Positions 19,128 to 37,790 are shown, numbered from the stretch's first letter. The stretch is 45,712 bases of DNA from an uncultured Planctomycetales bacterium (GCA_964487475.1 CAZAPM010000001.1:76374-122085), one strand, 5' to 3'. Notes: generated from the letters alone by a model not told the origin. Made by a program: numbers and translations.

Positions 19128-19562
19128 ATGGCAGTCAAAGCGGCAAGGCGAAAGAAACAGAAGATAGTGATGAAGAAGAACCTCAGGGATTTCATGAAAG
19201 ACGAATCCGGGTACATGACCAAGGAGAACCTGCTTAAGGTCGCGGTGGGGACCATGACCGGGTTCGGGGTGTTGATGGCTTCATCGCAGGCGCAGGCACA
19301 GCACCAACAGGGTCCCCCTCAAGGGCCAAGCCTTCTCGATCTGTACAACTCGATGACCCCGGCAGAGCGGGCAGCGTTGGCCAGTGCGATGGGAGTAGGT
19401 ACTCAGTCCGATGATCCCGGTCCCGGCCAGGTGGCGGGGATCCCGGGAGGATGGAACCAGCACATCAACGCGGAATCGCTGGAATGGAGGCCGACGGGGG
19501 TGGGCACGACACTCGAGATATTCCCCAGCCATACCCATCACAGCGTGCACGTGGCATATTGA
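19128..19562 (+). CDS. Putative RiPP precursor 1 (HxsA-like, degenerate His-x-x core)
   Basis: AAGGAGG RBS; directly after hxsB; leader KKNLRDFMKDESGYMTKENLLK aligns with precursor 2; C-terminus HTH-HSV-HVA-Y. Confidence 0.7.
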   Translation: MAVKAARRKKQKIVMKKNLRDFMKDESGYMTKENLLKVAVGTMTGFGVLMASSQAQAQHQQGPPQGPSLLDLYNSMTPAERAALASAMGVGTQSDDPGPGQVAGIPGGWNQHINAESLEWRPTGVGTTLEIFPSHTHHSVHVAY

Positions 19563-19594
19563 TCCTAAACGCATACCCTAAGGGAGGTGGACAG

Positions 19595-20377
19595 ATGAGG
19601 CGGGTGTTCGCAGTGGTCGCGGTGGCGGTGTTCTCTTTATGTTCCTTCGGGTTGGGCAAAGGTTTCGCTGCAGAGGAGTCTGGAGCATGCGAGGATTGCA
19701 AGCAGTTCCGGGGGATAGTACCTTCGGAGGAGCAGATTGCTTCCCGTCTTTCCTCAGCGGACCGGATGGTCGCATTCTCCGCCTACCGTCATTCGGATAC
19801 CACGATGTGCAAGAAAGCGCTCGATACCGAGGCATGTTACGATTCCGTGCAGCTTTTTGCCCTGATCGAGACCCTGGCCAAAGGGCGGTGCGATAATCTC
19901 CCCGTGCGTTACCGTGCGGATTACAAGCCGGTGTGCGAGGCGATTAAAAACAACTCTTGCGGGATCGTCGATGCAGGAGTGTTCCAGGATCTTTGCCAGG
20001 GTTTGGCGGCACGCAATCGGGACAGGATCGCTGCCGCTTTGCGCAACCCTCTTTATCCTGAGATCCCCAAGAACCCGGATGATATGGCCGACATGATCCT
20101 TAACCTGTATTCGGCTTATCGGGACGGGAAGAAGGCCTGCCCTCCGGGAAAGTCCCTCAATATAGTTATCAACGCTTCCTGCGATATGCTCTTCGGCTCG
20201 GCTGCGTTGACCAAACAGATCCCCGGGCTGGCAAAGGACATGCGGGTTGCGCTGCTGGCCAGGAACACGGAGAAGCCCGGCCTTTGTTCCGGTATCATTG
20301 ATCCGCACGTGAGGGCGGTGTGCCAGACAGGGAATTACGAGACCTTCGAACAGCTTTTGGATCAGCTCTGGTATTGA
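19595..20377 (+). CDS. Secreted Cys-rich protein (module 1)
   Basis: GGAGG RBS, Sec signal peptide, 12 Cys in the mature part including C-x11-C units. Confidence 0.75.
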   Translation: MRRVFAVVAVAVFSLCSFGLGKGFAAEESGACEDCKQFRGIVPSEEQIASRLSSADRMVAFSAYRHSDTTMCKKALDTEACYDSVQLFALIETLAKGRCDNLPVRYRADYKPVCEAIKNNSCGIVDAGVFQDLCQGLAARNRDRIAAALRNPLYPEIPKNPDDMADMILNLYSAYRDGKKACPPGKSLNIVINASCDMLFGSAALTKQIPGLAKDMRVALLARNTEKPGLCSGIIDPHVRAVCQTGNYETFEQLLDQLWY

Positions 20378-20410
20378 TTTCGCCGGTAATCTGCATGCAC
20401 CACGGGCAAT

Positions 20411-21622
20411 ATGACCAACAAAGTCGCGATCTATTTCACCCATAAGGAGAGCCTGGGGCATACCTCACGGGTGCGTGCGATTGTGACCGCGCTTATACGT
20501 ATGTACGGCCGCAAGGTGCGGGTGAGGGTGTTCCATGCGGGTAAGCCGCAGCGCTATATAAAGTTCCCCGATAACGTCGCCTGGGTGGACCTTCCTTCCC
20601 CGTACTTCAGCCGGGCATCATTTTATCAGCGCCGCGGCGGCAGCTGCGGGGAACATATGTATTATGCCCGGCAGCGCCAGGAAGTGATGCTGGCGTACCT
20701 GCGCAAGGACCCTCCGGACGTATTCGTCACCGAATTCTTCCCCTTTGGAAGGCAGGAATGCAGGTTCGAGCTTCTTCCGGTTATTTCGTATTTGAAGAAG
20801 GCAGGGGTAAGGATCTGCGCCTCGATTGGCTACCCGTTTATCGTACGGGACAGCCTGGCGGTGATGAAGGAGTATAACCGGTTATACGACCGTTTCCTCA
20901 TCCATACCCCGGAGGGCCTCGAAGAGCCGTTTTTAGCCGCATCCATCAGCCATCCTCCCTTAAGGGACGCGTACCGGGAAGTGCTTGCCTTGCTGTATCC
21001 TAAGACGACGTATACCGGATATATATTGCCGGTGTCCCCCGCTGCCGGAGAAAAAAAGCCGAAATATCCCCCATCAGGAAAAGGGAAAAAAATGGTGCTT
21101 GTCAGCAGGGGAGGGGGGGTGATCTATCCTAAGATAATCACCCACGCGATCCTGGCAGCCGCGCGTATCGGGGATGAAGCGGATTTTTCGGTGCTCAGCG
21201 GCCCGTCCACCAGTAAGAGCGAACTTGCGGTGTTCACCCGTCTTATCCGCAGCCTGAAGAAGCGACGCTGCACATTCTCTTTATACAGGGATGATTTCCC
21301 TGGGCAGCTTGCCGGCGCGGATGTTTCCGTGAGCATGGCCGGATACAATACCGCGGTGCAGCTATTGCGTTGGGGGACGCCTTCGGTGCTGGTCCCTTCA
21401 GGAGTGGATCCGGAGGTTTCCCAGGGGTACTGCAGCGAACAGTTGAGCCGTGCCGAATTGCTGCGCACGCGCCTTCCCTCCCGTGTGCTGGAATATAATC
21501 ATCTGACCGCGGAGGGTATGGAGTGTGCCATACGCGAGATGCTGAAAAAAAAGAGAGTGGCGCCCGCGCCCGCGGCTTGGTTCGAAGGCGCGCAGCGTAC
21601 CGCGGGGATACTCGCCCAATGA
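20411..21622 (+). CDS. GT-B glycosyltransferase (COG4671/GT28 C-terminal-like)
   Basis: SLGHTSR, VTEFFPFGR..RFEL, VLVSRGGG, ADVSVSMAGYNT, EQLSRA. Confidence 0.8.
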   Translation: MTNKVAIYFTHKESLGHTSRVRAIVTALIRMYGRKVRVRVFHAGKPQRYIKFPDNVAWVDLPSPYFSRASFYQRRGGSCGEHMYYARQRQEVMLAYLRKDPPDVFVTEFFPFGRQECRFELLPVISYLKKAGVRICASIGYPFIVRDSLAVMKEYNRLYDRFLIHTPEGLEEPFLAASISHPPLRDAYREVLALLYPKTTYTGYILPVSPAAGEKKPKYPPSGKGKKMVLVSRGGGVIYPKIITHAILAAARIGDEADFSVLSGPSTSKSELAVFTRLIRSLKKRRCTFSLYRDDFPGQLAGADVSVSMAGYNTAVQLLRWGTPSVLVPSGVDPEVSQGYCSEQLSRAELLRTRLPSRVLEYNHLTAEGMECAIREMLKKKRVAPAPAAWFEGAQRTAGILAQ

Positions 21623-22734
21623 AGGTAAGGATAGAGAACAATCGGTCTGACAAAGTGTTGCTTAAGAAGTGCCTGCAGGAGCTGGAATCCGCCGTAGTGC
21701 AGGCGCAGGGCCTCAACGACCTTGACCGGTACCGCCAGGGTTTCGAAGCGCAGTTTGCATCCTATGTGGGAGCCGCGCATGCCCGCGCGGTGAATTCCGG
21801 CACCGATGCGTTGCATCTTGCTTTGCTGGCGCTGGGAGTCGGGGCGGGACATGAGGTCCTCGTTCCCGATGTCACGTACGTATCCACGGCGCTGGCGGTC
21901 CGCTTCGCGGGCGCAACCCCGGTATACGTGGATGTGCGCGGCGCCGATCTCACCCTCGATACCAGGCTCCTGGAGCGCGCCCTGACGCCCCGCACCAAGG
22001 CCGTCATGGCGGTGCATATGTTCGGCAATCCCTGCGCCATGACCGAGCTATCTAAATTCGCGAAGGCGCACCGTCTCCTGGTCGTCGAGGATTGCTGCCA
22101 GGCATTGGGCAGCAGGCTGGGGCCAAAGTCCGTCGGCAGTTTTTCCGATGCTGCGGCGTTCAGTTTTTCGTATTACAAGCCCCTGTCTTCGCTTTCCGGA
22201 AACGGAGGGATGGTGGTCTGCCGGCAGGCTCGTACCGCGGAGAGGATCGATGCCCTGCTGAATTTCTGGAAGCTCGATCCCCTGATCGCTGGTGCGGGGA
22301 GGAAATTTCATAAGATCGCCCTGCCTGATCTGGCGACGGTCAAAGTGAAGTTTTCCATACTGGAGGCGATCATCGCCAGCCGTGAGAAGTCCAGCCGCCG
22401 TTATGAGAAGGGCCTGCGGGGGCTGCGTGCCGTGAGCGTTCCCTCCCGCAGTCGGGAGGCGGTTACGGTGAAGGAGAATTTCCTCGTGTTCTGCGCTCAG
22501 AGGGACCGTCTGCGCAACGCCCTGGCCCGGCAGGGCATCGATACGGACCTGCCGTATGAACCGGTGCACCGTGCGGCATGCTGTGCCGATCCTTTGGCAT
22601 CTGACCGGTCGTTCCCCGAGGCGATGCGTTATTTCCGGGAGGGTTTACATCTTCCATTGTACTCTTTCATGCGGGACGACGAATGTGACAGCGTGATCCG
22701 TTCGGTGGTCTCGTTCGCACAAGGCATCCGATAG
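21619..22734 (+). CDS. DegT/DnrJ/EryC1/StrS family PLP aminotransferase
   Basis: VNSGTDALHLAL, TKAVMAVHMFG, VVEDCCQALG, FSFSYYKPL (PLP Lys), LHLPLY. Confidence 0.9.
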   Translation: MKVRIENNRSDKVLLKKCLQELESAVVQAQGLNDLDRYRQGFEAQFASYVGAAHARAVNSGTDALHLALLALGVGAGHEVLVPDVTYVSTALAVRFAGATPVYVDVRGADLTLDTRLLERALTPRTKAVMAVHMFGNPCAMTELSKFAKAHRLLVVEDCCQALGSRLGPKSVGSFSDAAAFSFSYYKPLSSLSGNGGMVVCRQARTAERIDALLNFWKLDPLIAGAGRKFHKIALPDLATVKVKFSILEAIIASREKSSRRYEKGLRGLRAVSVPSRSREAVTVKENFLVFCAQRDRLRNALARQGIDTDLPYEPVHRAACCADPLASDRSFPEAMRYFREGLHLPLYSFMRDDECDSVIRSVVSFAQGIR

Positions 22735-22750
22735 CCGCGCATCTCCCAGC

Positions 22751-24448
22751 ATGCACTACTACTTTTTCCGTGACGACGACGTTGTGGCTCCCGACCGCGC
22801 CTTCCTGGCGTTCTTCCGCCTGGGACTGCGATACCGCATTCCCGTGGTCTATGGGGTCGTCCCGGGGAAGGCTACTGTGGAGCTTATCGCATTCCTTTCC
22901 CGGCAGAAGAAACTGCATCCCGGGCTAATCGATATTGCGCTGCACGGATGGACCCATGCCGATCACGGCAGCGGCAAGAGCGGGAAGAAGTATGAATTCG
23001 GGCCGCAGCGCTCGTACCAGCAGCAGCGGCAGGATATACTGCAGGGATGGGCCGCACTGTACCGTTATTTCGGGAAGGATACCGCGCCGGTGTTTATACC
23101 GCCTTTTCACGGGTTCGACCTGAACACGTACCGCATCATCGGCAGCCTGGCGTACAGGCACGCGGTGAAGATCTTCAGCGCGGGAAACCGTACCGGTTTC
23201 CAGGGAGCGGCGCTGCTTGATATCCCGGCACAAGTCTCGGTGGCGCCCGGAAAGGGAGCGGCGGATTTCTCTTCGGAGCTCGGCAGGCAGATTGTGCACG
23301 CCCGCCGGCAGGGGCCGGTCACGGGGATCCTGTTCCACCATGCTACCTATGCCCCGCGTGACCTGGAGCGGATCGGCAGGCTGTTCCGGTCTTTGCGCGC
23401 GGGGAGAGGTTCCCGCTGCATCCTGCTTTCGCAGCTGGCAGGCCGGGACCAACGGCTCAAGTTGGACCTTACATGTATGCTGACCACCAGATGCAACTAC
23501 CGCTGCCGGTATTGCACGATCTGGAAGGGAGAGGCGCTGGACCTCCCTTATACGAAATTCAAAGGAGCGCTTACCGCATTCCTGATGCGTTTCCGGCTGG
23601 GGTCCATATCCTTGACCGGAGGCGAACCGCTGCTCTATCCCCGGATAGGTGAGCTGTTGACATTCCTGGAGGGCAGGAAAAAGAAGGGAGATATCGATGA
23701 GATCGGGATCTTCACCAATGCCAGTGTACCCGGAAGATTGATCTCCCTGCTGAAAAAGGTGAATCCCGATCCACGGGGTTTTGAAGTGGGGATCAGCCTC
23801 GACGGTCTGGCCCCTACGCATGAGCGGGTGCGGGGGACGCCGCTGGCATTCCGCAGCGCGGAGGCCGCGCTCGATGCTTTGAAAAAGCATTTCCCCGCGC
23901 TGCGCGTGTCGGTGAAATATACCATTTCCCCGGAATCGTACCGGGACCTGGCCGCGGTGTACGCATTCAGCCGCGGGAAAGGAGCGGATTTCGTCCCTAA
24001 ATTCGCGGAGTCCGGCGCGCAGCATTATTATCACCGGATCCCGCTCGAGCCCGGGACGCAGACCGGGTTTACTCCTTCCCAGCGCGCAGAGGTGAAGAGA
24101 CAACTGGCCGAGGTCAGGGCGAAGGATGCGGGATCAGCCAGACGTTTCTGTGATGAACGCGCGTTGCGGGCTCTGGAGATCTTTCTGGACAAGGGTGAAA
24201 AGTCGGTCACCTGCTGTTCTACCCCGGCATTCTCCTGTTTTATCACGGCGCAAGGCATGGTGCATCCGTGCATTTACCAGCCCGCCGTCGCGGATATCGC
24301 GGATAAGGGATGGCCGGACAAGCTTTATGGCCAGGGGCATGCCGCGCACATCACCCGGGGCCTGCGGGGGACGTGCCCGAAATGTTTCTCGTACCATGGA
24401 TACCTGAACCAAGGCAATCTGGAAGGATACCTCTCCGCTCATGCCTGA
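22751..24448 (+). CDS. Polysaccharide deacetylase-like domain fused to a radical SAM/twitch domain
   Basis: N-terminal FRDDD, IALHGWTH, FIPPFH, LFHH (NodB/CE4-like), then CNYRCRYC, LTGGEP, ISLDG, and CST...VHPC...CPKC. Confidence 0.8.
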   Translation: MHYYFFRDDDVVAPDRAFLAFFRLGLRYRIPVVYGVVPGKATVELIAFLSRQKKLHPGLIDIALHGWTHADHGSGKSGKKYEFGPQRSYQQQRQDILQGWAALYRYFGKDTAPVFIPPFHGFDLNTYRIIGSLAYRHAVKIFSAGNRTGFQGAALLDIPAQVSVAPGKGAADFSSELGRQIVHARRQGPVTGILFHHATYAPRDLERIGRLFRSLRAGRGSRCILLSQLAGRDQRLKLDLTCMLTTRCNYRCRYCTIWKGEALDLPYTKFKGALTAFLMRFRLGSISLTGGEPLLYPRIGELLTFLEGRKKKGDIDEIGIFTNASVPGRLISLLKKVNPDPRGFEVGISLDGLAPTHERVRGTPLAFRSAEAALDALKKHFPALRVSVKYTISPESYRDLAAVYAFSRGKGADFVPKFAESGAQHYYHRIPLEPGTQTGFTPSQRAEVKRQLAEVRAKDAGSARRFCDERALRALEIFLDKGEKSVTCCSTPAFSCFITAQGMVHPCIYQPAVADIADKGWPDKLYGQGHAAHITRGLRGTCPKCFSYHGYLNQGNLEGYLSAHA

Positions 24449-25601
24449 GCTTCATGCGTTGCGATTTCCCGAATCCGTATTGATCGACCTGGTGAATACC
24501 TGCAATTACTCCTGCCGGTTCTGCTGGTATCATTTCGATCCGCGTGTCCAGTTCCTGCGTACGTTCAAGGGAGTTCCGTACCATTTTCCCGCGGAGGTCG
24601 TCAAGCGCGTGCTGCATGAGCTTTCCGGGCTGAACCGCCGGGTCAATGTCACTTTTACCAGTGAAGGCGAACCTACGCTGCATCCTCAGCTCGGGTCTAT
24701 CCTGGATGAGGCGGTCTCCTGCGGGCTGGATGCCGGTGTGCAGACGAACGGGACGTTCCCCGTGAGATTGCGGCCTGCGATCTCACGTGTGGCCCGCGTC
24801 GACTGCAATATAAGCGCGTTGACCAAGAGGACCTTTACGGCGCTCAATCCTAAGTCTAAAAACCTTACTGCGACGGCCATTTCCAATATCCGGTATCTCA
24901 GCGGCCTGTCGCGGCATCCGGTCCTGACTTTGGTCTTCATCGTTACCCGGCAGAACCTTTCCGACCTGGTGCGTCTGCCGGAGTTCTGTAACCGGCTGGG
25001 GGTGGACAAGGTGTTTTTGAAGCTTTGCGAGATCGTATATCCGTACAACAAAGAACTGATGCTTTCCAAAAAAGACGCGATCGGCGTAGCGAGGCTTTTG
25101 ACGCAGCAGAGAGACAGGTGCCGGTTCACGCATAATTTTGACGAAGTGGTCAAGGATATCCTTTTCGGGTACCGCGGGGAGGAGGAGTTCAAGGATAACC
25201 CCGTTCTACACGACCTCGATTTCTGTTGGAAAGAATGGAAAACAAAGGCTTCCCGCATCCCGTGGTGCGAAAGCGATTACGTGTACCGTACTCCAGGGAT
25301 CAAGGCCTGCACCAACCCTCTGCGGTACCTGTACCTGCGTCTCGACGGAAGCGTATATACCTGTCCGCGAAACTCATGGATCGACCCGGTAGGAAACGTA
25401 TTCGATTCCACGCTGCCGCAGATCCTGAAGGGGGACAAATACCGTGCGTTCGTCAAGGACGCGCTTTTTTCCTTCGATATCGCCGAGCCTCGCTGGCGGC
25501 GCTGCAAGAACTGTCCTTTTGAGAAAGACCATCTGCGGGTGATGGAGCACTTGCGTCGGCATGCCCCGGGAGTGCTGCGGAGGATGCTGTGCCGGAAATG
25601 A
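24441..25601 (+). CDS. Radical SAM protein with twitch/SPASM-like C-terminus
   Basis: TCNYSCRFC, EGEPTLHP, QTNG, CTNP...DGSVYTC...VGNV...CKNCP. Confidence 0.85.
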   Translation: MPELHALRFPESVLIDLVNTCNYSCRFCWYHFDPRVQFLRTFKGVPYHFPAEVVKRVLHELSGLNRRVNVTFTSEGEPTLHPQLGSILDEAVSCGLDAGVQTNGTFPVRLRPAISRVARVDCNISALTKRTFTALNPKSKNLTATAISNIRYLSGLSRHPVLTLVFIVTRQNLSDLVRLPEFCNRLGVDKVFLKLCEIVYPYNKELMLSKKDAIGVARLLTQQRDRCRFTHNFDEVVKDILFGYRGEEEFKDNPVLHDLDFCWKEWKTKASRIPWCESDYVYRTPGIKACTNPLRYLYLRLDGSVYTCPRNSWIDPVGNVFDSTLPQILKGDKYRAFVKDALFSFDIAEPRWRRCKNCPFEKDHLRVMEHLRRHAPGVLRRMLCRK

Positions 25602-26617
25602 TGGAAGCCTGCCGGGTCCTGCCGCGTCTTCCTTTGAGCAGCGTATGGGTGTTCCTTTCCGATATCTGTAACCTGCGCTGCCGGTACTGTTTTTTCAAGT
25701 ACCGTACGCACGCCAGGAAGCTGGAAGTCAAGCGTTTGCGGCCCTTGTTCTCGCTGCTTCCTGCGCATAAAAGGGTGGATGTGGTGATCTCCGGAGGCGA
25801 GCCGCTGCTTACCTGGGCCGCGGCGAAGGAACTGGTCCTTACTGCCCGCGCGTTCCTTCGGCGCCCGGCGTTCATCCTGGAAAGCAACGGGATCCTGCTG
25901 GATAAAGGGAAGATCGCGTTCCTGAAGCAGCACAGGGTTAAGGTCGAGCTGGGGGTGGACGGAGGGTATGAGACAACCAGCCGTTTCCGCAGAGGGCTGA
26001 CCCGTGATGCCTTTGCCCGAATGGTGCGCAACATCGCCGCCTTGCGTTCAGCGGGCATCGAGCTGAGCCCTACCATGACGGTGCATCCCGAGAGTGCCGC
26101 CGGGATGTTCGAGGATTTCCGTTATCTGGTTTCGCTGGGGTTGTACGCTATCGACGTGCACCCGGCGTTGTTCGAGGCCTGGGACGAGGGATCCGCTGCG
26201 GAGTTCGTCCGTGGTTATCGCAGGATAGCCAGCTTCGCGCTGCGCTGCGACCGTCGGGTGCTGAACCCCTCCTACAGCAGGCCGTTGCCTCTTTCCCTGG
26301 ACCTGATCGTCGAACCCGGCGGGGATATCCTTCCCAATTGGGTGTATTTGTGCGTGCCGCAGGAAGTGCGGCAGGAGTATTATTACGGCCGGGTGGGAGC
26401 GCAGGGGGTGGAGTTCTTTCCCGAGAAGCTGCGGTTCATCCTGGGTCATTACCGCCGTTGGTTCCGCCGCCCCGTTTCGTACGGGGAAGTCAGTAATCTG
26501 AATCTGCAATTGCTCTCCCGGGTGCATGGAAAGGGCGTGCTTTTTCCGGGAGTGGACGCATATCTGCGGATATGGAAAACGATGAAGAAACTGGATGCGC
26601 TTTTGACCGATGCCTGA
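25598..26617 (+). CDS. Radical SAM protein (no recognisable auxiliary-cluster Cys motif)
   Basis: ICNLRCRYC, SGGEPLL, ESNG, GVDGG; the SPASM-position segment VEPGGDILPNW lacks the usual Cys. Confidence 0.82.
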   Translation: MMEACRVLPRLPLSSVWVFLSDICNLRCRYCFFKYRTHARKLEVKRLRPLFSLLPAHKRVDVVISGGEPLLTWAAAKELVLTARAFLRRPAFILESNGILLDKGKIAFLKQHRVKVELGVDGGYETTSRFRRGLTRDAFARMVRNIAALRSAGIELSPTMTVHPESAAGMFEDFRYLVSLGLYAIDVHPALFEAWDEGSAAEFVRGYRRIASFALRCDRRVLNPSYSRPLPLSLDLIVEPGGDILPNWVYLCVPQEVRQEYYYGRVGAQGVEFFPEKLRFILGHYRRWFRRPVSYGEVSNLNLQLLSRVHGKGVLFPGVDAYLRIWKTMKKLDALLTDA

Positions 26618-27593: not shown

Positions 27594-27597
27594 TCGC

Positions 27598-28698
27598 ATG
27601 AAAGCGGTGTATCTGGAATCGTCGGGGTTCAAATGCGAGAGCAACGCTTACCTGAGCTCGCAGATCATCATTTTCCTGAAGCATCATGGTTACCGGATGG
27701 TGGATTCCGCGATGCAGGCCGATTACATCGTGCTTACCACCTGCGGGTTCCGGGTGCAGGAGATGGAGCATGCGTATGCCATCGCCCGCAAGTACGGGGA
27801 CGCGTATCCCTCCAAGACCCTGATCGTCTCAGGTTGTGCGGTGGATACTTACCCGCTTTTTCGCAGCGACCCGCAGATGCGCTGTGTCGGGCCGAGGGAA
27901 CTCGCGGAGTTCGACCGGATCTTCGCGGCCAAACGGTCTTTGACGACCTTTACCGCCAACGAGATCGAAGCCCGTTTTTTTGACGAGGACAAAGGATCGC
28001 GTTTCTGGATCCAGATCGGGCAGGGGTGTGTGAATAATTGCGCCTATTGCGCCATCAAGAAGGCCAAACAAGGTCCGGCCAGCAAGCCTATACCCGAGAT
28101 ACTTGAGGAAGTGCGCCGGGGTGTGGCGCAGGGCAAGGGGGACCTGGTGCTATTGGCGGACGACTGCGGGAGCTACGGTGCGGATATAGGCTGCGATACC
28201 GCGGATTTGCTGCAGGCGCTGGCGCACCTTCCGGAGTTGCGGGGATCGCGCAGCCGGGTGTATCTTAATGCGTTCGAGCCGGGAAGGCTCTTGAAGCTGT
28301 TCCCCCGGATGAAGGAGGCGCTGGCCGCGGGGATCATCGGGCACATGGATATCGACATCCAGTCCGGGTCGGACAGGCTGGTGGCGCAGATGAACCGGCG
28401 GTACAAGGTGGCGCAGGTGCTCGAAACCGTGTCGCAGATACGCGAGCTCGCTCCGCGGACCACGCTGAGCACGGAGATGATCTTTGCCCTGCCCGGTGAG
28501 ACCCGCCGGGAGTTCGCGCAGTCGATACAGGCGGCGCTGCACTTTAATGACGCGCTGTTCCTGAAATATTCACCCTGTCCGGGCACGCCCATGGCTGACC
28601 GCACCGGAAGGCTGGATGAGGATGAGGTCGGCTACAGGATCGCAGTATTGAAAAAACTCGCGGTAACCACAGGATACAGATGCGTATATCATCTGTAA
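27598..28698 (+). CDS. MiaB/RimO-like methylthiotransferase-family radical SAM lacking TRAM (copy 1)
   Basis: UPF0004-like KCESN/LTTCG/VSGC, IQIGQGCVNNCAYC, IQSGS...MNRRY, ALPGET; ends before a TRAM domain. Confidence 0.82.
   Translation: MKAVYLESSGFKCESNAYLSSQIIIFLKHHGYRMVDSAMQADYIVLTTCGFRVQEMEHAYAIARKYGDAYPSKTLIVSGCAVDTYPLFRSDPQMRCVGPRELAEFDRIFAAKRSLTTFTANEIEARFFDEDKGSRFWIQIGQGCVNNCAYCAIKKAKQGPASKPIPEILEEVRRGVAQGKGDLVLLADDCGSYGADIGCDTADLLQALAHLPELRGSRSRVYLNAFEPGRLLKLFPRMKEALAAGIIGHMDIDIQSGSDRLVAQMNRRYKVAQVLETVSQIRELAPRTTLSTEMIFALPGETRREFAQSIQAALHFNDALFLKYSPCPGTPMADRTGRLDEDEVGYRIAVLKKLAVTTGYRCVYHL
28147..28605 (+). repeat. 459-bp exact direct repeat, copy 1
   Basis: Identical by eye to 30857-31315 (offset 2710), from GTGCTATTGGCGGAC to GCTGACCGCACC. 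Confidence 0.92.
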
Positions 28699-28707
28699 TC
28701 GCAGGCC

Positions 28708-30305: not shown

Positions 30306-31459
30306 ACGTAGCTCGGGCATATGTCTGCGCGCTTTCCCCGCACCATGAGGAGAACGGATATCTTGCCGCGCAGCTGGCGGAGTATTTTTCGCGTAACGGG
30401 GTAAGGCTGGCCCGTACGTTGTGCACCGCGGATTGTATCGTTTTGACAGGATATGCCTGTTGTCAGGAGGACCTGGATTCTCTCCTTACGAGGGTAAGGC
30501 AGTTGCGCAGGGAATACCGCCGGCAGGCGATCGTGGTGTGCGGACGGGCCGTGGATATGGATCCGAGGTTAAGGCGGTTGCCCGGGGTGTGCGCAATAAG
30601 CCCGCGGGACCTGGATCGTTTCGACGAGCTGTTCGGTGCCCGTATCAAGGTCGCTTCCGTGCGGCCGGCATCCATCGGCCGCAGGTTCTTCCCCCTGGCC
30701 GGGACGGATTCCGCATGGATCCGGATAGCGCAGGGCTGCTTGCACGCATGCAGCTATTGTATGTTGTCCCGGCATGCCAGGCAGGTCCGTAGCGTTCCTT
30801 TGCCGGAAGTGCTCAGACAGGTGAAGGGGTGCGTCCGGGAGGGGAAGAAAAGGTTAGTGCTATTGGCGGACGACTGCGGGAGCTACGGTGCGGATATAGG
30901 CTGCGATACCGCGGATTTGCTGCAGGCGCTGGCGCACCTTCCGGAGTTGCGGGGATCGCGCAGCCGGGTGTATCTTAATGCGTTCGAGCCGGGAAGGCTC
31001 TTGAAGCTGTTCCCCCGGATGAAGGAGGCGCTGGCCGCGGGGATCATCGGGCACATGGATATCGACATCCAGTCCGGGTCGGACAGGCTGGTGGCGCAGA
31101 TGAACCGGCGGTACAAGGTGGCGCAGGTGCTCGAAACCGTGTCGCAGATACGCGAGCTCGCTCCGCGGACCACGCTGAGCACGGAGATGATCTTTGCCCT
31201 GCCCGGTGAGACCCGCCGGGAGTTCGCGCAGTCGATACAGGCGGCGCTGCACTTTAATGACGCGCTGTTCCTGAAATATTCACCCTGTCCGGGCACGCCC
31301 ATGGCTGACCGCACCAGAAGGCTGGCGGTAAAAGAAGTCCGTTACAGGGAAACGCTGCTGGAGAAGCTTAGTGCGAAGACAAAAGGCCGGGTCCGGGTGC
31401 AGGTCACCGCTGCAAAGTCCCGAAAAGGAAAAGGATCAAACGGGTGCTCAGGGGGGTAA
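30302..31459 (+). CDS. MiaB/RimO-like methylthiotransferase-family radical SAM lacking TRAM (copy 2)
   Basis: IRIAQGCLHACSYC; 153 codons identical to copy 1; N-terminal cluster ligands altered (HHEEN, GYACC, VCGR). Confidence 0.8.
   Translation: MNVARAYVCALSPHHEENGYLAAQLAEYFSRNGVRLARTLCTADCIVLTGYACCQEDLDSLLTRVRQLRREYRRQAIVVCGRAVDMDPRLRRLPGVCAISPRDLDRFDELFGARIKVASVRPASIGRRFFPLAGTDSAWIRIAQGCLHACSYCMLSRHARQVRSVPLPEVLRQVKGCVREGKKRLVLLADDCGSYGADIGCDTADLLQALAHLPELRGSRSRVYLNAFEPGRLLKLFPRMKEALAAGIIGHMDIDIQSGSDRLVAQMNRRYKVAQVLETVSQIRELAPRTTLSTEMIFALPGETRREFAQSIQAALHFNDALFLKYSPCPGTPMADRTRRLAVKEVRYRETLLEKLSAKTKGRVRVQVTAAKSRKGKGSNGCSGG
30857..31315 (+). repeat. 459-bp exact direct repeat, copy 2
   Basis: Identical by eye to 28147-28605. 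Confidence 0.92.
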
Positions 31460-32318
31460 AGCTGAGCAGCGTACCGAAGAACAGGAATGGTGAGTAAGGG
31501 ATATGCGCAGTGTTGAGCTGTTCTTTTGGGATCGATGCGGGGTCGCCCAGGTCGATGCGGACCATGCGCGGGATCACCGTGAAGATCACCGCGAACTTGA
31601 AGGCGCTTAGCATCGTGGTCAGGAACAGCGCCGCGTTAAAAATGCTTTGCGGATAATAGATGCAGCGGAACAGCAGTGATGCGGAGATCAATGTTCCCAG
31701 CACCACGATTTTCTTGGGGGATCTGCTCCCCGTGCGATAGAGTATCGCGTAAAAGGCGAACAGGATGAAAGGGTGGAAGGCCCGGGCATGGGGCAGAAAC
31801 GCGAGTATGGCGCTGCGGACGATCCAGCTTATCGAGATGATGATGAGAAAGGAGAACCCGACCTGGCGGGCGATATCCCTGGCGCTTTGGGGGTCGATGA
31901 AGGTTTTACGGCGGACCATCCGGTAGAGGCTTTCGCAAAACAGATACGCCAGGGCGGCGATGTTGGCGTTTACGAATATAAGCATGCAGGGCAGCAGCCA
32001 CAGCCGGGCATGGGAGAAGTCCGGCGCCAGCAGGGAAAATATGATGAAGAGTTTCCCGTCGCCGGCAGCCCAGACATTATAATGATAGAGCAGGTATCCC
32101 GCGGCAGACGCCAGGAAAAGGTTCAAGAGGAACAGGGAAAGGTTCAGTTGCAGGGAGCCGCTCGAGGCGATCAGCAGGGGATACGCCACGAGCAGATATG
32201 CCAGGGCAGCCAGCAGATACCGATTGCGGATAATCCGGTACCGGGCATCGGTATAAAAACTGGCGCCGCCTAAGAGCAGTACGGCGGGGAGGAATAAGAG
32301 GGTCGATTCGTAAGCCAT
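31404..32318 (-). CDS. A24 prepilin-type (GxGD) aspartyl peptidase, TadV/CpaA/PibD-like
   Basis: FYTDARYRIIRN (first Asp), WAAGDGKLF (second Asp), C-terminal IPYSPFLFFG; multi-TM; no PilD N-terminal Zn/methylase domain. Start ATG 32318. Confidence 0.85.
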   Translation of the reverse strand: MAYESTLLFLPAVLLLGGASFYTDARYRIIRNRYLLAALAYLLVAYPLLIASSGSLQLNLSLFLLNLFLASAAGYLLYHYNVWAAGDGKLFIIFSLLAPDFSHARLWLLPCMLIFVNANIAALAYLFCESLYRMVRRKTFIDPQSARDIARQVGFSFLIIISISWIVRSAILAFLPHARAFHPFILFAFYAILYRTGSRSPKKIVVLGTLISASLLFRCIYYPQSIFNAALFLTTMLSAFKFAVIFTVIPRMVRIDLGDPASIPKEQLNTAHIPYSPFLFFGTLLSFTPLSTRLILFLFGTLQR

Positions 32319-32367
32319 ACATGATCCGTGAATAAATACATTGTAGCATGTTAAGGGGAGGATACAA

Positions 32368-33729
32368 TTGATTTTGCGCAGGCGGGAAGGAAAAGCCTCC
32401 CGGGATTTTGACGGGGCCGTGGCGCAGTTGCGGGAGTGGTGGGGGGCGCGGGTGTGCGTACGGGGCAATGAGGCCGTGGTAACCCTGGTACCTGGGGTGA
32501 CCCGCTATACCCCGGGTTTTGTCGAGTCCTGCTACCGGCTGCTCAATGATTTCGAGGACCGCTTTCAGATCCGGTTCGAAGGGGCGCCGTACTGTTTTTT
32601 CCCCGAAGCACTGGATCATGTGCATGCCCGGGCGCAGAAGTCTGCGCAGCATGGCTTGCGTTGTTGTTCCTGCAGGTTCCGGGATATCTGCCCGGGCATG
32701 GCCGGGGGGTGGGGCGCTCAGGGGCTGCAGGTGCGCCCGTTATCCGGAGTGCCTCAGGAGATCACCATCGAGTTGACGAAGGCGTGCAATATGCACTGCA
32801 GTTTCTGTTATCACCGGCCCGGGAAAGGGGCTGAAGCGCGACTGTCCCTGCCCAAGGTGGCCGGGTTGCTCGTGGAAGCCAGGAGGTTGGGTGTGCGGCA
32901 GGTGCGTTTCACCGGCGGAGAGCCATTGTTATATGAAAAATTTCCGGAAGCGCTGCAGATGGCAAAACGCAGCGGGTTTTACGTGTTCGTCAACACTAAC
33001 GCCTTGCTCCTTTCCCGCGCGCTGATCCGCGCTATCCGTCCGTATGTGGACAACGTCCTTGTCTCATTTACTCCCGAAGAATCCGGCGCCGGCTCTTGTT
33101 CGGAAGGCGTGTTGGAACATAAGGGGCGCATGCTGCAAGAGCTTGTCCGGCAAAAAGTGCCCTATGTGCGCGTAGGTACGGTGATCGACCGCCGGCTGCA
33201 GGGCCGTTTCGAAGGGATCTCCCGGCTCCTTCTGCAGGCGGGCGTCTCCCGCTGGGAACTGTACCGTCCGATGCTGGAAAAAAGTGCGTACCCCGAAGCG
33301 CTGCCCCTTTACGACCTTTCTTTGCAGGAGTACCACGCGCTTTTTCCCCTTATCAGAAAGAACTTCCGGCGGGGGCTTTTTACCTACATCGCCAATGCGT
33401 TCCCTTATTGCGCCCTGCCCCGGGGATCCGACCGGCTGTTCCTCAAAGGCGCCAGCAGTGATGACGGGCATTCCCGGAGGCTGGTCTTCGATGCCGAAGG
33501 GTTTTTCAAACCCAGTTATTTCATACGGGAGAACCTGGGGGCGACCTTGCGCACCGCGCTCAAGCACCGGTATCTGGACGAGCTCAATGCATGGGGGTAT
33601 CTTCCGCAGCAATGTAAGGTGTGTCCGTTATTCTCATTTTGCAGGGCGGGGAGCAGGTACTGTGCCAGCCAGGAGCACCGCACATATTGGTCGGCTGACC
33701 CTTTGATGCAGCAATGCAGTACCCCTTGA
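32368..33729 (+). CDS. Radical SAM/SPASM protein with an extra N-terminal Cys-cluster domain (possibly HxsC-related)
   Basis: GGGGAGG RBS and TTG start; N-terminal PYCF...CCSCRFRDICPG; core ACNMHCSFC, FTGGEP, NTN; C-terminal FPYC...CKVCPLFSFCRAG. Confidence 0.8.
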   Translation: MILRRREGKASRDFDGAVAQLREWWGARVCVRGNEAVVTLVPGVTRYTPGFVESCYRLLNDFEDRFQIRFEGAPYCFFPEALDHVHARAQKSAQHGLRCCSCRFRDICPGMAGGWGAQGLQVRPLSGVPQEITIELTKACNMHCSFCYHRPGKGAEARLSLPKVAGLLVEARRLGVRQVRFTGGEPLLYEKFPEALQMAKRSGFYVFVNTNALLLSRALIRAIRPYVDNVLVSFTPEESGAGSCSEGVLEHKGRMLQELVRQKVPYVRVGTVIDRRLQGRFEGISRLLLQAGVSRWELYRPMLEKSAYPEALPLYDLSLQEYHALFPLIRKNFRRGLFTYIANAFPYCALPRGSDRLFLKGASSDDGHSRRLVFDAEGFFKPSYFIRENLGATLRTALKHRYLDELNAWGYLPQQCKVCPLFSFCRAGSRYCASQEHRTYWSADPLMQQCSTP

Positions 33730-33770
33730 AAATAAGAAGGTAATGATAAAAATACACGCCGGGATATCGA

Positions 33771-33799
33771 TTGACAGTTTAGCTGCCTGTCTGTATAAT
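33771..33799 (+). promoter_or_regulatory. Perfect consensus sigma70 promoter
   Basis: TTGACA (33771-33776), 17 nt spacer, TATAAT (33794-33799). Confidence 0.8.
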
Positions 33800-33810
33800 C
33801 CCATTAGGGA

Positions 33811-33947
33811 TTTAATTACAAAAAGGAAGTAATATGCTCTGCGACGTGGAGGGCCGGGCATTACGGCGTGCATGCAAGGAGTTCGCCAGGGATAGATGTT
33901 CAAGGTGGGCGGCAGGGGAAAAGAGAATTTAACCCTTTGTAATTAAA
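33811..33947. repeat. Long-range 12-bp perfect inverted repeat enclosing a small ORF
   Basis: TTTAATTACAAA (33811-33822) and TTTGTAATTAAA (33936-33947). Confidence 0.75.
33834..33932 (+). CDS. Possible 32-aa small ORF (MLCDVEGRALRRACKEFARDRCSRWAAGEKRI)
   Basis: AAGGAAG RBS-like sequence and ATG directly downstream of the 33771 promoter; below the ORF-track cut-off; no recognisable homology. Confidence 0.3.
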   Translation: MLCDVEGRALRRACKEFARDRCSRWAAGEKRI

Positions 33948-33979
33948 AGACTAAGGTAAATGCGCACGCTGAAAAAAAA

Positions 33980-34008
33980 TTGACACTGCATACCCTTTCA
34001 AGTATACT
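33980..34008 (+). promoter_or_regulatory. sigma70 promoter of Hxs module 2
   Basis: A-tract, TTGACA (33980-33985), 17 nt spacer, TATACT (34003-34008); AAGGAGG RBS of the next gene follows. Confidence 0.8.
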
Positions 34009-34042
34009 TTTTAGTAGGGTAATTATCACAAAGGAGGGTTGA

Positions 34043-34666
34043 ATGCACAAAGCATGCTTTATACTGTTTGTCGTTATCTTCGGCCTTGCGGGGGCTGTCC
34101 CGTCAGTGTACGCCCAGAATAACGAAGAGTTGACAGTGACTACGTATTACCCGTCACCTATGGGAAGTTATAATAATCTTACTGTAGCTGATACCTTGCA
34201 TGTGACATCGGCTGTTGCCGGTGCCGGCAATAGTTATAACGGGCCGGGGATCGTCTTTAACTTTCCCTCTCCGGGCCCGATGGCCAGGAACGATGCGGGT
34301 ATCATCCGTGCATTCATCCCTGCCAGCGATGATTTTGAACTTCAGCTCATGGTCTCGGATAATATTAACGATAGAGTGTATATCGGAGGCTCCAAGGGAG
34401 GGTTGTTCGGGGGGACTCCTGGAGGGTTGACCGTCAGGGCCTCGGGTGACGCTCGGCTTGCCAATGGCAATGCCGCCGGCCCGACTGGGGCGAATCTTTT
34501 CGTTTCCGGTTCGGTGCTGGAACGTTCCCCCGCATTCGGTCAGGGCTGTATCAGGATGAGTTATGGAGGTAACTCGGGTTTGACCGAGTGTCCTCCGGGT
34601 ACTACATTCAATTCCTGGATCACCGCGCCGAGCAGGCGGGGCGGCCAGTTCTATTGTTGCCAGTAA
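34043..34666 (+). CDS. Secreted protein with N-terminal TVTTYYPSP motif (copy 2)
   Basis: Sec signal ending SVYA; QNNEELTVTTYYPSPMGSYN; Gly-rich beta region; C-terminal C...CPPG...YCCQ. Confidence 0.8.
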   Translation: MHKACFILFVVIFGLAGAVPSVYAQNNEELTVTTYYPSPMGSYNNLTVADTLHVTSAVAGAGNSYNGPGIVFNFPSPGPMARNDAGIIRAFIPASDDFELQLMVSDNINDRVYIGGSKGGLFGGTPGGLTVRASGDARLANGNAAGPTGANLFVSGSVLERSPAFGQGCIRMSYGGNSGLTECPPGTTFNSWITAPSRRGGQFYCCQ

Positions 34667-34678
34667 TCAAGATTTACC

Positions 34679-35068
34679 ATGAGCAGAATCATTTCCGTTC
34701 GGGTCGATACCGGATTGTTTCCTTTTGAGGCGGCGGTCTATGCGTCTTGCGGGTTCATCGATCGGTATTACGTGTCTCTGGACCGTGAAGGCCAGATTTT
34801 GATAGTGCGTTTCAAGCCCAAGCCATCCGTGGCTTCTCCTTCCCGGAATCTTTCTGATGAGTTTCTCAATCAGGTGTTGTTCTATACCCTGCGGTTACAT
34901 GTACACGCCAAGAACAAGCATCTGACCGAGACCATTGTTTCCCAGGCGCTGGGAGCGGCGATCGCACCGGTACCCGGAGGCGAAAATCAGGGTGTGTCAG
35001 ATCCTTTGGGTATCGCTGTCCCGTGGGAGGAACAGCCGGCGAATAAGGGGAGAAAGAACCGGTGCTAA
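34679..35068 (+). CDS. hxsD: His-Xaa-Ser system protein HxsD (module 2)
   Basis: VDTGLFPFEAAVYASCGFIDRYYVSLD...DEFLNQVL..TLR...IVSQAL; tail DPLGIAVPWEE. Confidence 0.82.
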   Translation: MSRIISVRVDTGLFPFEAAVYASCGFIDRYYVSLDREGQILIVRFKPKPSVASPSRNLSDEFLNQVLFYTLRLHVHAKNKHLTETIVSQALGAAIAPVPGGENQGVSDPLGIAVPWEEQPANKGRKNRC

Positions 35069-35274
35069 GGCTTCATGCCACGTGTTACCCGTGGAGGGTG
35101 CTTGAGAAAGCGCGCCGTGCCTATGCGCCCGCAGCGGAGATATCTTTTCGTCGATGCAGCGAGTATGTCGAAGTGACGGTGCGCACGCAAACTGCATCTG
35201 CCGCGTGCCATACGGATGAGATCGAGGGAGAAGTATTGAATTTTCTCCTTACCGAGCTGAGGGATTCGCTGTGA
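35062..35274 (+). CDS. Short HxsD-like protein (module 2)
   Basis: 70 aa; LHATCYP...GEVLNFLL; overlaps both neighbours; positional homolog of 17488-17706. Confidence 0.6.
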   Translation: MLRLHATCYPWRVLEKARRAYAPAAEISFRRCSEYVEVTVRTQTASAACHTDEIEGEVLNFLLTELRDSL

Positions 35275-36728
35275 AAGCGTCTGTTCCCAGATTCCCTCTT
35301 GCTCCGGTGGATTTCCGGTTCCGCGCGCTTGGCAGTAAGTTCCTTCTTACCAAGGTGACCGGTGAGTTTTGTGTTCTTTCTCGTCAGGATTTCCTGAAGT
35401 TCTGTACCAAGGGGGAAGTCGGGGTGTCCTCGCGTTCCCGGAGGGCTCTTGCGTGCGCGGGATTTCTTGGCGCGCAGGGTGACGAGCAGGTCAACGCAGA
35501 AAAATTTTCCGCGTTGCACGGTCACCTGTTCCAGGCGCCGTCGTTGCATATCATGGTGCTCACGTTGCGCTGCGATCACCGGTGTGTGTATTGTCAAACC
35601 AGTTCCCGTGGCCCCGGACACAATCGGTTGGACATGTCGCCGCGCACCGCGCGTAAGGTGATCGACAGGATATTCCTTTCTCCCGCACCTGCGTTGCATA
35701 TCGAATTCCAGGGAGGGGAGCCGTTGCTTAATTACCGGGTGCTTGTGCATGCGATAAGGTATGCCCGGGAGAAGAATACGCGCGCAGGGAGAAAGCTTGG
35801 CTTCACCTTGGTTTCGAATTTCTCTTTTCTCGATGAAAAGAAGTTGGCGTTCCTGGTAAAGGAATCGTGTTCGCTTTGTACTTCGCTCGACGGGCCTGCG
35901 CGGGTGCACGACAGGCAGCGGGTAGCTCCGGGTTGCGGAGGGGGTGCATACGCGAACGTGAAACATTGGCTGGGCATCATTGGGAAGATGCATGCCCGGG
36001 GAGAGTATCCGTATCGGGTCAATGCGCTTACGACCGTGACCGCGCTCTCCCTGCCGTATTGGAAGGAGATCGTCGACGAATACGTGGATTCGGGGCTTTC
36101 GACCATCCACCTGCGGCCGGTGGCTCCTTTCGGTATTGGCAAGGGAAAGTCCTGGGAGCGTCTCCGGGTGAGCGCTGACGAATTCCTGGATTTCTATCGC
36201 AAGTCGTTACGTTATATTATCGCGTTGAACCGCAAAGGGATACCCTTGGCGGAACGGACCGCGATGGTATTCCTGAGCAAGATCCTCAAGGGGGTTGACC
36301 CCGGGTATGTCGATCTGCGCTCTCCTTGCGGAGCGGTTTTCGGGCAACTGGCATATAACTATAACGGTGACGTGTACACCTGTGATGAGGGGAGGATGTT
36401 TTCTGCAGCGTCGGGTAACGAGCTTTTCAGGGTGGGGAGCGTGTTTAAGGGGAGTGCGCGTTCTCTGGTCGATAATCCGGTGACCAAGACACTTGCGCTC
36501 GCGTCATGTTTGGATAACGTGCCGTTATGCGCCGAGTGCGCCTATGCTCCGTTTTGCGGGGTCTGTCCGTTGTATAATTATGCATCCGAAGGGGATGTGT
36601 TTTCTCGCGGAGTTAACGACCGTTGCCGAATACATAAAGGTATTTTTGATCTGCTGTTCGGGTTGCTGCAAGGATCGGAGAGACAGGTGTTCGAACGTTG
36701 GATGGCTCCAGCAAAGGAGGAAGGATGA
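35271..36728 (+). CDS. hxsB: His-Xaa-Ser system radical SAM/SPASM maturase HxsB (module 2)
   Basis: PSLHIMVLTLRCDHRCVYCQ, IEFQGGEPLLN, TSLDGP..VHD..R, YVDLRSPCGA, GDVYTCDEGRM, CAECAYAPFCGVCP...RC. Confidence 0.92.
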   Translation: MKASVPRFPLAPVDFRFRALGSKFLLTKVTGEFCVLSRQDFLKFCTKGEVGVSSRSRRALACAGFLGAQGDEQVNAEKFSALHGHLFQAPSLHIMVLTLRCDHRCVYCQTSSRGPGHNRLDMSPRTARKVIDRIFLSPAPALHIEFQGGEPLLNYRVLVHAIRYAREKNTRAGRKLGFTLVSNFSFLDEKKLAFLVKESCSLCTSLDGPARVHDRQRVAPGCGGGAYANVKHWLGIIGKMHARGEYPYRVNALTTVTALSLPYWKEIVDEYVDSGLSTIHLRPVAPFGIGKGKSWERLRVSADEFLDFYRKSLRYIIALNRKGIPLAERTAMVFLSKILKGVDPGYVDLRSPCGAVFGQLAYNYNGDVYTCDEGRMFSAASGNELFRVGSVFKGSARSLVDNPVTKTLALASCLDNVPLCAECAYAPFCGVCPLYNYASEGDVFSRGVNDRCRIHKGIFDLLFGLLQGSERQVFERWMAPAKEEG

Positions 36729-37372
36729 GGAAGGGTTGTATCCTTACGCTTGTTGTATGGTTGTGTGTTGCGGTATCAGGAGGGGTGGGTTTGGCGGATG
36801 AACCAGGGGACCGGGAGTGTGGTAAGGATGTCGATCTCTCCCGGATCGTGCAGGATCGCACGTTTATGGCCGAACATCAGTTGTTGGCCCTCAACTATCT
36901 GATCTGCCGGTCACTTGTCGAGAAAGACATCAAACAGTGCGATCTGTTAACCAATGATAACCTGAAGAAAGCCTGCATCAGGGGGGTGAAGGAGTACGGT
37001 CAGTATATCGACCTGGGTCGCAATAAACCCTCCGATCTTATTACCTGCCCCGACAATATCCCCCGCGATGAGTGCCGCAGGAAAGCGGCAGCGATGTACC
37101 GTAAGGATGAGTCGATATGCGATAATAAAGCGGACTGTCTCGCGACGATGCGTATGGATCCGTCTTTGGCCGCAAATACGGTAACCAAGGATTTTATCAT
37201 CCTGATGAAGGCGGTACGTAATAACAGCGTAGAGACATGCTTGACCATTTCTAACCCGGGGGCGATTGTCTATTGTCAGGCTGTGGTGGCGCGTAAATTG
37301 TCTTTATGCGACATGAGCGAGGGGGCAAATGACCTTAAGGAGTCGTACTGTGCCTACGCAACGGGCCAATAA
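36725..37372 (+). CDS. Secreted Cys-rich protein (module 2)
   Basis: GGAGG RBS, ATGA overlap with the hxsB stop, Sec signal, 12 Cys in the mature part with C-x11-C units. Confidence 0.75.
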   Translation: MRKGCILTLVVWLCVAVSGGVGLADEPGDRECGKDVDLSRIVQDRTFMAEHQLLALNYLICRSLVEKDIKQCDLLTNDNLKKACIRGVKEYGQYIDLGRNKPSDLITCPDNIPRDECRRKAAAMYRKDESICDNKADCLATMRMDPSLAANTVTKDFIILMKAVRNNSVETCLTISNPGAIVYCQAVVARKLSLCDMSEGANDLKESYCAYATGQ

Positions 37373-37417
37373 GAGTCGGGAAGAGCGTGTGTGGCGCATA
37401 ACAGGGAGGAAGAGGTC

Positions 37418-37750
37418 GTGAAAAAGAAACCGGCGGTAAAGAAAAAGAAAGGGTCCAGTTCGTTTCCTAAGGTCAAGAAGGAACTTTCCGAATTCCTTTT
37501 AAGCGAAGAAGGGAAGATGAGCAAGAAGAAGATCGCCAAGATGGGGATCGCGCTGGGGGCGATGGCGCTTTTCATGAAGCCCGAGGAATCGGGTGCGCAT
37601 CATTCGCAGGGGTTAGGTCAACCTGCGAGCCACACCAGCGGGGCAATGGGCGGAAGAGGGGGGCATTCCTCGCATTCTTCCCATTCTTCCCATTCTTCTC
37701 ATACGTCCCATGGGTCACATTCGTCTCACGGCAGCGGAGGATGGTGCTAA
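37418..37750 (+). CDS. hxsA: His-Xaa-Ser repeat precursor peptide HxsA (precursor 2)
   Basis: Core HHS...HTS...GG(HSS)4-HTS-HGS-HSS-HGS-GGWC; Lys-rich leader with KKELSEFLLSEEGKMSK; GGAGG RBS favours GTG 37418 over 37391. Confidence 0.9.
   Translation: MKKKPAVKKKKGSSSFPKVKKELSEFLLSEEGKMSKKKIAKMGIALGAMALFMKPEESGAHHSQGLGQPASHTSGAMGGRGGHSSHSSHSSHSSHTSHGSHSSHGSGGWC
37664..37735 (+). repeat. Eight 9-bp coding repeats encoding His-Xaa-Ser triplets
   Basis: CATTCCTCG CATTCTTCC CATTCTTCC CATTCTTCT CATACGTCC CATGGGTCA CATTCGTCT CACGGCAGC. Confidence 0.9.
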
Positions 37751-37790
37751 GCGGAGCGGTACGTCTCCGGTTCGCTCGCTGCCTTCAATT

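Follow-up and report, generated by a model that had tools for sequence, protein, structure and literature searches.

What does a prepilin-type peptidase cut in a gene cluster that makes modified peptides? This question is raised by a stretch of 45,712 nucleotides (the window) recorded as an uncultured Planctomycetales bacterium (GCA_964487475.1 CAZAPM010000001.1:76374-122085), for which the names of homologs indicate Omnitrophota. The cluster, with a radical SAM motif in 18 open reading frames (ORFs), is an enlarged His-Xaa-Ser (Hxs) system of two modules, each comprising an hxsD-like gene, hxsB, and a precursor gene. Our hypothesis, which we consider probable, is that the Hxs precursors carry a pro-leader in the style of Flp prepilins and that each module's own A24 peptidase cuts this leader after its last glycine (G28 and G32). 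That the substrate of the peptidase is the precursor is quite likely, as judged from the genomic evidence. The pairing of leader and peptidase in genomes is near-obligate. An apparently undescribed maturation step would thus be added to a known Hxs system, with good support from genomics and a predicted biochemistry. The elements concerned are the following, where G000 is the genome of the window and C1 a contig.

19128..19562, plus strand: precursor 1, 144 amino acids, subtype t1 (NF038309 HxsA3, E 4.4e-5 over residues 15-60, under the cut-off)
19191..19211, plus strand: FMKDESG, the Flp-like motif of precursor 1, with a predicted cut after G28
31404..32318, minus strand: A24a, an A24 membrane aspartyl peptidase of 304 amino acids (PF01478; FlaK 3s0x by profile and fold)
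37418..37750, plus strand: precursor 2, 110 amino acids, subtype t2 (NF038309, E 5.8e-12, and NF038313, E 1.4e-11, both under the cut-off)
37493..37513, plus strand: FLLSEEG, the Flp-like motif of precursor 2, with a predicted cut after G32
G000:C1:126885-127823: A24b, the second A24 gene, with which the cluster ends some 5 kb beyond the window

Judged by their sequences, both precursors are Hxs peptides of the HxsA3/A4 type. They consist of a pro-leader, a segment of about 28 amino acids with basic, hydrophobic, and small residues, and a variable core, in which precursor 2 has ten His-x-Ser motifs and precursor 1, with an atypical core, a single one near the C-terminus. A preliminary description of the window had aligned the two leaders without gaps, and this alignment was recovered with the same coordinates and strings (9 identities in the first 22 positions). 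When the N-termini of 1,456 long ORFs from this genome were compared with the leader of precursor 1, precursor 2 scored 52 (BLOSUM62); the next best score was 29 and the mean 1.8 (standard deviation 6.4). A hidden Markov model of the leader, run over the genome, gave two strong matches, both precursors, and a weak one (E 0.0096). Both leaders end in F-x-x-[D/S/E]-E-x-G, in the same register as Flp prepilin leaders, with the leader glycine at 19209-19211 (G28) and 37511-37513 (G32, counted from the GTG at 37418). The glutamate at +5 in precursor 1 and the hydrophobic stretch running into small residues ahead of the first histidine (AQAQ in precursor 1, ESGA in precursor 2) are likewise present as first described.

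The consensus of 120 homologs of precursor 2 reads P-x-I-K-K-x-I-x-x-F-L-x-x-E-E-G, then K-I-S-K-K-x-I-L-K-x-G, followed by a short hydrophobic run, small residues, and a histidine some 28-31 residues past the leader glycine. Position -1 is Gly or Ala in 120/120, in an alignment whose anchor demanded Gly or Ala; in 139 further representatives, an anchor free of Gly could be placed in all but 6, and the remaining 133 have 130 Gly and 3 Ala at this position. According to the parts of PMC10191384 available to us, prepilin leaders "invariably" end in Gly or Ala, and prepilin peptidases cut on the cytoplasmic side, right after this residue, with no other protein required. Two subtypes were distinguished within the phylum: t1, to which precursor 1 belongs, has F-x-x-D-E-x-G followed mostly by F-V-S-K-E, and t2, with precursor 2, has F-L-L-S-E-E-G followed by K-I-S-K-K. 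Of 22 t1 sequences, found with a search pattern that constrained +1 and left +5 free, 13 have Glu and 8 have Asp at +5. Among the homologs of precursor 2, only 14 of 120 have Glu at +5, and Tyr is not frequent at +6. The precursor profile matched 1,204 representatives at 50% identity (E<=0.001), a figure that low-complexity His-Ser matches may inflate. Very long precursors of about 500-560 amino acids stand behind the same leader in L056, L063, and L179, with extended His-x-Ser repeats in L056 and L063. In L123, the core continues into further sequence that resembles a Hint/intein-like domain.

The Flp-like character of the leader, proposed earlier from the motif, was also seen by profile comparison: the precursor profile matched Flp over 20 leader columns and nowhere else (E 6.8e-5, probability 63%). 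Individual Flp leaders match in register, for example KRFVRDEEG and KQFLVSEDG.

On the side of the enzyme, A24a is an intact-looking A24 peptidase that is predicted to act on a leader ending in Gly or Ala. It scores 27.4-27.8 bits against PF01478 (cut-off 26.5), and A24b scores 17.8 bits, under the cut-off; 24 of 27 family peptidases match this model. The catalytic aspartates of A24a are Asp24 (32247-32249) and Asp87 (32058-32060); the second of A24 peptidases belongs to a GxGD motif, which reads AAGD in A24a and GAGD in most relatives. Both aspartates are invariant in 50/50 aligned family members, and A24a has no methylase domain. The family profile found the archaeal peptidase FlaK (3s0x, E 6.4e-5), and the model of A24a (pLDDT 88) gave FlaK 3s0x as the top fold in VIA-align (Z 12.8, root-mean-square deviation 3.4, 168 residues aligned; next Z 6.3). 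Foldseek returned nothing significant with this model, NCBIfam held no match for A24a and no relevant family for the seven cluster peptidases scanned, and a homolog search from A24a alone found only two relatives.

The preliminary description had called A24a the only A24 peptidase of the window. This is correct, but the cluster contains A24b as well; a PilD-type gene on contig C14 is the third A24 gene of the genome. Because the cluster has two A24 genes, the implied notion of a single peptidase for both precursors is probably wrong. The peptidase tree splits t1 from t2 genomes with one change (SH-aLRT 98 with 62 rows, 94/82 with 34 rows), the 62-row tree being a quick one with two outgroups on long branches that gives no root or origin. 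With profiles built without G000, A24a scored 155 bits on t1 and 86 on t2, and A24b 60 and 236 bits. Since tree split and profile scores agree, it is likely, on these comparisons, that A24a serves precursor 1 and A24b precursor 2.

It had also been proposed that the leader would go together with an A24 gene in homologous clusters, and this is what was found. Within the phylum, 401 Omnitrophota genomes were searched, the cluster-type peptidase with a four-sequence profile that gave no PilD matches. The precursor was found in 41 genomes, the peptidase in 41, and both in 38, so that 38/41 precursor genomes have the peptidase, against 3/360 of the others. These counts are not independent, as the genomes include kin, and we attach no weight to a Fisher test of them. 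Precursor and peptidase share a contig in 33 of the 38 (median separation 3.1 kb, maximum 29.6 kb). Three genomes are peptidase-only, and in the three that are precursor-only, the contig carrying the precursor is 5 kb long or ends within about 12 kb of it.

Across phyla, a degenerate DNA pattern of the leader detected 121 loci in 23/64 parts of the collection. Judged by their hydrophobic segment and by eye, 114 of these were taken as precursors, corresponding to 111 genomes after three same-genome repeats were dropped; L042, L086, L109, L113, L139, L146, and L148 were considered false, and the contig-truncated L077 and L120 were retained. One of the 111 genomes (G464) is unpublished and contributes one count. 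The leader genomes comprise Patescibacteria, DPANN-type archaea, records titled Methanosarcinales, Elusimicrobia, Myxococcota, Clostridia, Poribacteria, and a few Omnitrophota. A peptidase was found in 103/111, using a profile of 25 phylum peptidases and two further homologs, with which Omnitrophota records may overlap. For 75 genomes with flanks, it lies within 10 kb in 34 and elsewhere in the genome in 36 of the remaining 41; without flanks, it was found in 33/36. The six false-positive genomes had no strong peptidase match (one weak, E 3.6e-7). Where contig numbers could be matched by name (12 genomes), a distance of 1.2-6.8 kb separates the leader gene from the peptidase gene. In four of the Firmicutes loci shown, there is a compact hxs operon with the precursor at its end, and the A24 gene directly adjoins or overlaps the operon's radical SAM gene. 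The Myxococcota-like loci (L052, L058, L081, L096, L103, L111, and L115) have a precursor without a radical SAM gene in the fetched flanks, and in two of three checked, the peptidase stands among radical SAM genes elsewhere.

That the peptidase goes with the leader and not with HxsB is indicated by two contrasts. HxsB occurs without it: no match to A24b was obtained in 328 HxsB-bearing plasmid records with a single-sequence search that recovers 28/34 known positives at the same database size, and canonical Hxs loci had neither leader nor peptidase (5/5 checked). Conversely, leader and peptidase occur without HxsB above the cut-off in all three Poribacteria-type genomes, whose cores behind the leader are rich in Cys and Trp. 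Leader-bearing loci of this type are L164 and L165 (both G468), L062, L141, and L150; the neighbors in G468 are glycosyltransferase-like genes, and the glycosyltransferases bear a weak PqqD-like N-terminus.

These results suggest the following course of maturation. HxsB, HxsD, and the other radical SAM enzymes would first modify the core with the leader still attached. The A24 peptidase would then remove the pro-leader at the cytoplasmic membrane face, after Gly(-1) rather than Gly(+11), the choice of site being less certain than the precursor as substrate. The cut would expose an ordinary Sec-type signal, a reading based on the residual N-terminus with its basic stretch, hydrophobic core, and small residues, and the peptide would be exported. 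Signal peptidase I could then free the core at the AQA or SGA site. Our confidence falls from the choice of site to the prior modification of the core, and further to export and release. The product may act in the envelope against entry of phage DNA, by analogy with the Escherichia coli system; this is the step in which we have least confidence. The order of the steps and the masking by the leader are the weakest parts of the mechanism. Export via the twin-arginine (Tat) pathway was considered, as S-K-K-x-I-L-K resembles the twin-arginine motif, and was rejected because RR is rare at +4/+5 (KK, KQ, and KE predominate) and a search for TatC gave nothing in G000 (94.6% complete) and in three of four other carriers.

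A wider version of this proposal, which we put forward only tentatively and consider rather doubtful as it stands, is that the Flp-derived pro-leader and its private A24 peptidase form a portable module taken from pilus biogenesis, which would license export by masking the Sec signal until the core is modified. The modifying enzymes would be radical SAM proteins here and glycosyltransferases in Poribacteria, and the module would be common to unrelated peptide classes in candidate phyla radiation (CPR) bacteria, DPANN archaea, Omnitrophota, Elusimicrobia, Myxococcota, gut Firmicutes, and Poribacteria.

Several results weigh against removal of the pro-leader by the A24 peptidase, and some of them favor other explanations, which are discussed with them below. 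The Flp set behind the profile match is narrow (23 sequences, 22 of them from one query), and the probability of the match is as modest as given above. A strict A-x-A within six residues of the first histidine is present in only 60/111 precursors. Eight of the 111 leader genomes had no peptidase match, including the large-contig Bathyarchaeota record L044, and the background for the peptidase outside Omnitrophota rests on the six false-positive genomes and the plasmids. The core behind the leader of L044 is rich in Cys and Gly, radical SAM genes are absent from its surroundings, and the genome has neither cluster peptidase nor HxsB. The agreement of peptidase tree and precursor subtype is equally expected from co-inheritance of whole cassettes. 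Moreover, the N-terminal processing of E. coli HxsA needs HxsB, HxsC, and HxsD, and the cloned operon contained no further gene, as far as can be taken from the available parts of PMC13128918.

In a first alternative, which we regard as unlikely, the leader would only bind HxsD or domains of the recognition-element (RRE) type and leave together with the signal peptide via signal peptidase I, and the A24 protein would be a passenger of the cassette with another substrate or a non-proteolytic role. HxsB was found in 43/401 Omnitrophota genomes, nearly the same set as leader and peptidase; therefore, the phylum test alone cannot separate the leader from the cassette. A binding role would also fit the Poribacteria loci, where precursors with the leader adjoin glycosyltransferases that match PqqD/RRE weakly (E 0.0029, under the cut-off). 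On the other hand, canonical Hxs has HxsD and HxsB but neither leader nor peptidase, both aspartates of the enzyme are invariant, and another pilin-like or class III ORF was looked for in the cluster and none found. Another substrate might be sought on contig C5 of this genome, where a run of Tad-like pilins (G, then Q-x-x-x-E-Y; L157, G000:C5:60.7-61.5 kb) needs some peptidase. Such pilins occur in 38/61 family genomes; in at least 8 of these 38, the cluster peptidase was not matched, and the pilins are therefore not that enzyme's likely purpose; as its main substrate they were rejected.

In the second alternative, rather improbable in our view, the peptidase does process the precursor, at Gly(+11) or at both sites, and F-x-x-x-E-E-G is a docking site. 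Position +11 is Gly or Ala in 119/120 homologs and in 125/133 anchored representatives, and the uncharged run (with a median of 15 residues, counted from +10) follows it directly, similar to a short class III signal peptide; this is where prepilin peptidases cut according to the available parts of PMC10191384. However, +11 also admits Ser, Thr, or Cys, and -1 nothing but Gly or Ala; it is the -1 site that the Flp match overlies, and the Phe(+1)/acidic(+5) pattern of t1 suits the -1 register.

As for pili, the likeness of the precursors to Flp ends with the leader. The segment past the leader glycine has a charge of +2.5 in the precursors versus -1 in Flp, and the best 19-residue hydropathy is 1.6 in the precursor family versus 2.8 in Flp; in the window, both precursors reach 0.8-1.4 and three pilins 2.9-3.2. 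Residues +1 to +9 are basic (K-I-S-K-K), unlike those of known prepilin substrates, which counts against cleavage at -1 as well. Class III signals require 20-25 mainly hydrophobic residues right behind the glycine, which the precursors lack. A type IVa pilus block stands 5.5 kb upstream of the cluster in the window; of 75 other loci, only 4, all of them Patescibacteria-group records, have genes for a pilus ATPase or platform within 10 kb. For 76 aligned precursors, 45 Pfam families matched (E<=1), and no Flp or N_methyl family was among the 25 of them that were listed. The peptides are thus unlikely to be pilus subunits, and the earlier proposal that the peptide, once cut, remains anchored in the membrane as a pilin-like subunit and that a type IV filament displays it is very improbable, despite the upstream pilus block, the Phe(+1) and acidic(+5) kept in t1, and the precedent of archaeal substrate-binding proteins as non-pilin cargo of class III signals (PMC13705601, in the parts available), because the hydrophobic pilin helix, with a short, weak segment that starts basic and runs into small residues, and the linkage to pilus genes, lacking in 71/75 loci, both fail. 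The caveat in the preliminary description, a motif recognized by an enzyme and then release by signal peptidase, is the better reading. As a separate observation, several genomes of CPR bacteria and Omnitrophota have type IV pilus genes next to the cluster (L050, L053, L054, L090, L179, and L169, besides this window).

We return to removal of the pro-leader by each module's A24 peptidase, which was compared with known systems. Similar to HxsA-B-C-D of Pseudomonadota (TIGR03976-03979), the cluster has HxsB above the cut-off twice, HxsD-like genes, a His-x-Ser precursor, and a signal-peptide-like segment, and N-terminal processing and export belong to HxsA maturation in that system. In contrast, canonical HxsA has no Flp-like pro-leader and canonical operons have no A24 gene, and the present cluster has 18 ORFs with the radical SAM motif, two modules, and no recognized peptidoglycan-binding domain. 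No window ORF came near the cut-off for HxsC (TIGR03977), the radical SAM ORFs downstream being scanned against Pfam only. From NCBIfam, the HxsA3 (NF038309) and HxsA4 (NF038313) models are the closest, HxsA3 spanning the leader at residues 15-60 of precursor 1; its cut-off is passed by Firmicutes homologs (118.4 and 102.7 bits) and by neither precursor of the window. NCBIfam names the precursor families and holds no model for the associated peptidase.

With Flp prepilins and the TadV/CpaA peptidases of type IVc/Tad pili, the system shares a leader of the form F/I-h-x-D-E-E-G in register and a peptidase without methylase domain. It differs in the missing Glu-Tyr at +5/+6, the basic residues past the glycine, the absence of Tad genes from the cluster, and the length of the peptidase (280-430 amino acids versus 216 for a CpaA-type protein in L160). 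As to archaeal FlaK/PibD (A24B), FlaK is the only credible structural relative, and several members of the family have weak Arc_PepC matches. The archaeal class III substrates retain the long hydrophobic pilin helix. Unlike the archaeal class III substrate-binding proteins, the substrates here would be radical-SAM-modified peptides. A pairing of such a leader with an A24 peptidase in modified peptides was not reported in the literature searched, most subscription papers lying outside its scope.

If the proposal is correct, prepilin-type A24 proteases double as leader peptidases for post-translationally modified peptides; should the portable module exist as well, A24 enzymes would be a new class of leader peptidase for peptides that are ribosomally synthesized and modified after translation (RiPPs). 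Leader and peptidase together would provide a genome-mining handle for a large, mostly unannotated family. According to the available parts of PMC13128918 (Li et al., 2026), the E. coli HXS system blocks entry of phage DNA, its HxsA, which carries a signal peptide, is active in the periplasm, and the experimentally established features are antiphage activity, a +8 Da modification, and periplasmic location. The words "peptidase", "pilin", "leader", and "archaea" are absent from the main text of that paper. The present findings bear on a question left open by that study, the right order of processing and export for a radical-SAM-modified effector, and would give an antiphage system demonstrated only recently a wider range that includes CPR bacteria, DPANN archaea, and gut Firmicutes. 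Cultured strains with compact operons, Mitsuokella multacida DSM 20544 and Agathobaculum butyriciproducens DSM 100391, make the proposal testable.

The cluster as a whole extends from about 16577 in the window to G000:C1:127823, ending just ahead of recA. Its remaining genes considered here, all on the plus strand, are as follows.

17060..17479: HxsD-like protein of module 1 (TIGR03976, E 1.5e-7, 31.7 bits, under the cut-off of 50)
17544..19124: HxsB radical SAM maturase of module 1 (TIGR03978, 371.8 bits, cut-off 370)
19595..20377: Cys-rich protein with a signal-peptide-like N-terminus, adjoining precursor 1 (no Pfam or NCBIfam match)
32368..33729: radical SAM gene, adjoining A24a and divergent from it
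34679..35068: HxsD-like protein of module 2 (TIGR03976, E 9.7e-11, 41.9 bits, under the cut-off of 50)
35271..36728: HxsB radical SAM maturase of module 2 (TIGR03978, 451.3 bits, cut-off 370)
36725..37372: Cys-rich protein with a signal-peptide-like N-terminus, adjoining precursor 2 (no Pfam or NCBIfam match)
37710..45712: radical SAM and accessory genes of module 2, a run that extends beyond the window to the second A24 gene and recA

The actual start of HxsB in module 1 is probably downstream of 17544. In agreement with the preliminary description, a scan of the 45 window ORFs and of seven downstream cluster ORFs revealed neither a C39 peptidase nor an ABC transporter domain. Ahead of hxsD in both modules stand small proteins with T-T-Y-Y-P-S-P and a signal-like N-terminus (16577-17035 and 34043-34666); they were also seen in several other Omnitrophota clusters and match no relevant family. 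Upstream of module 2, one perfect (12/12) and one near-perfect (11/12) sigma-70 consensus were found, at 33771-33799 and 33980-34008. Two MiaB-like radical SAM genes contain an exact duplication of 459 bp (28147-28605 and 30857-31315), which represents a recent duplication, gene conversion, or an assembly artefact.

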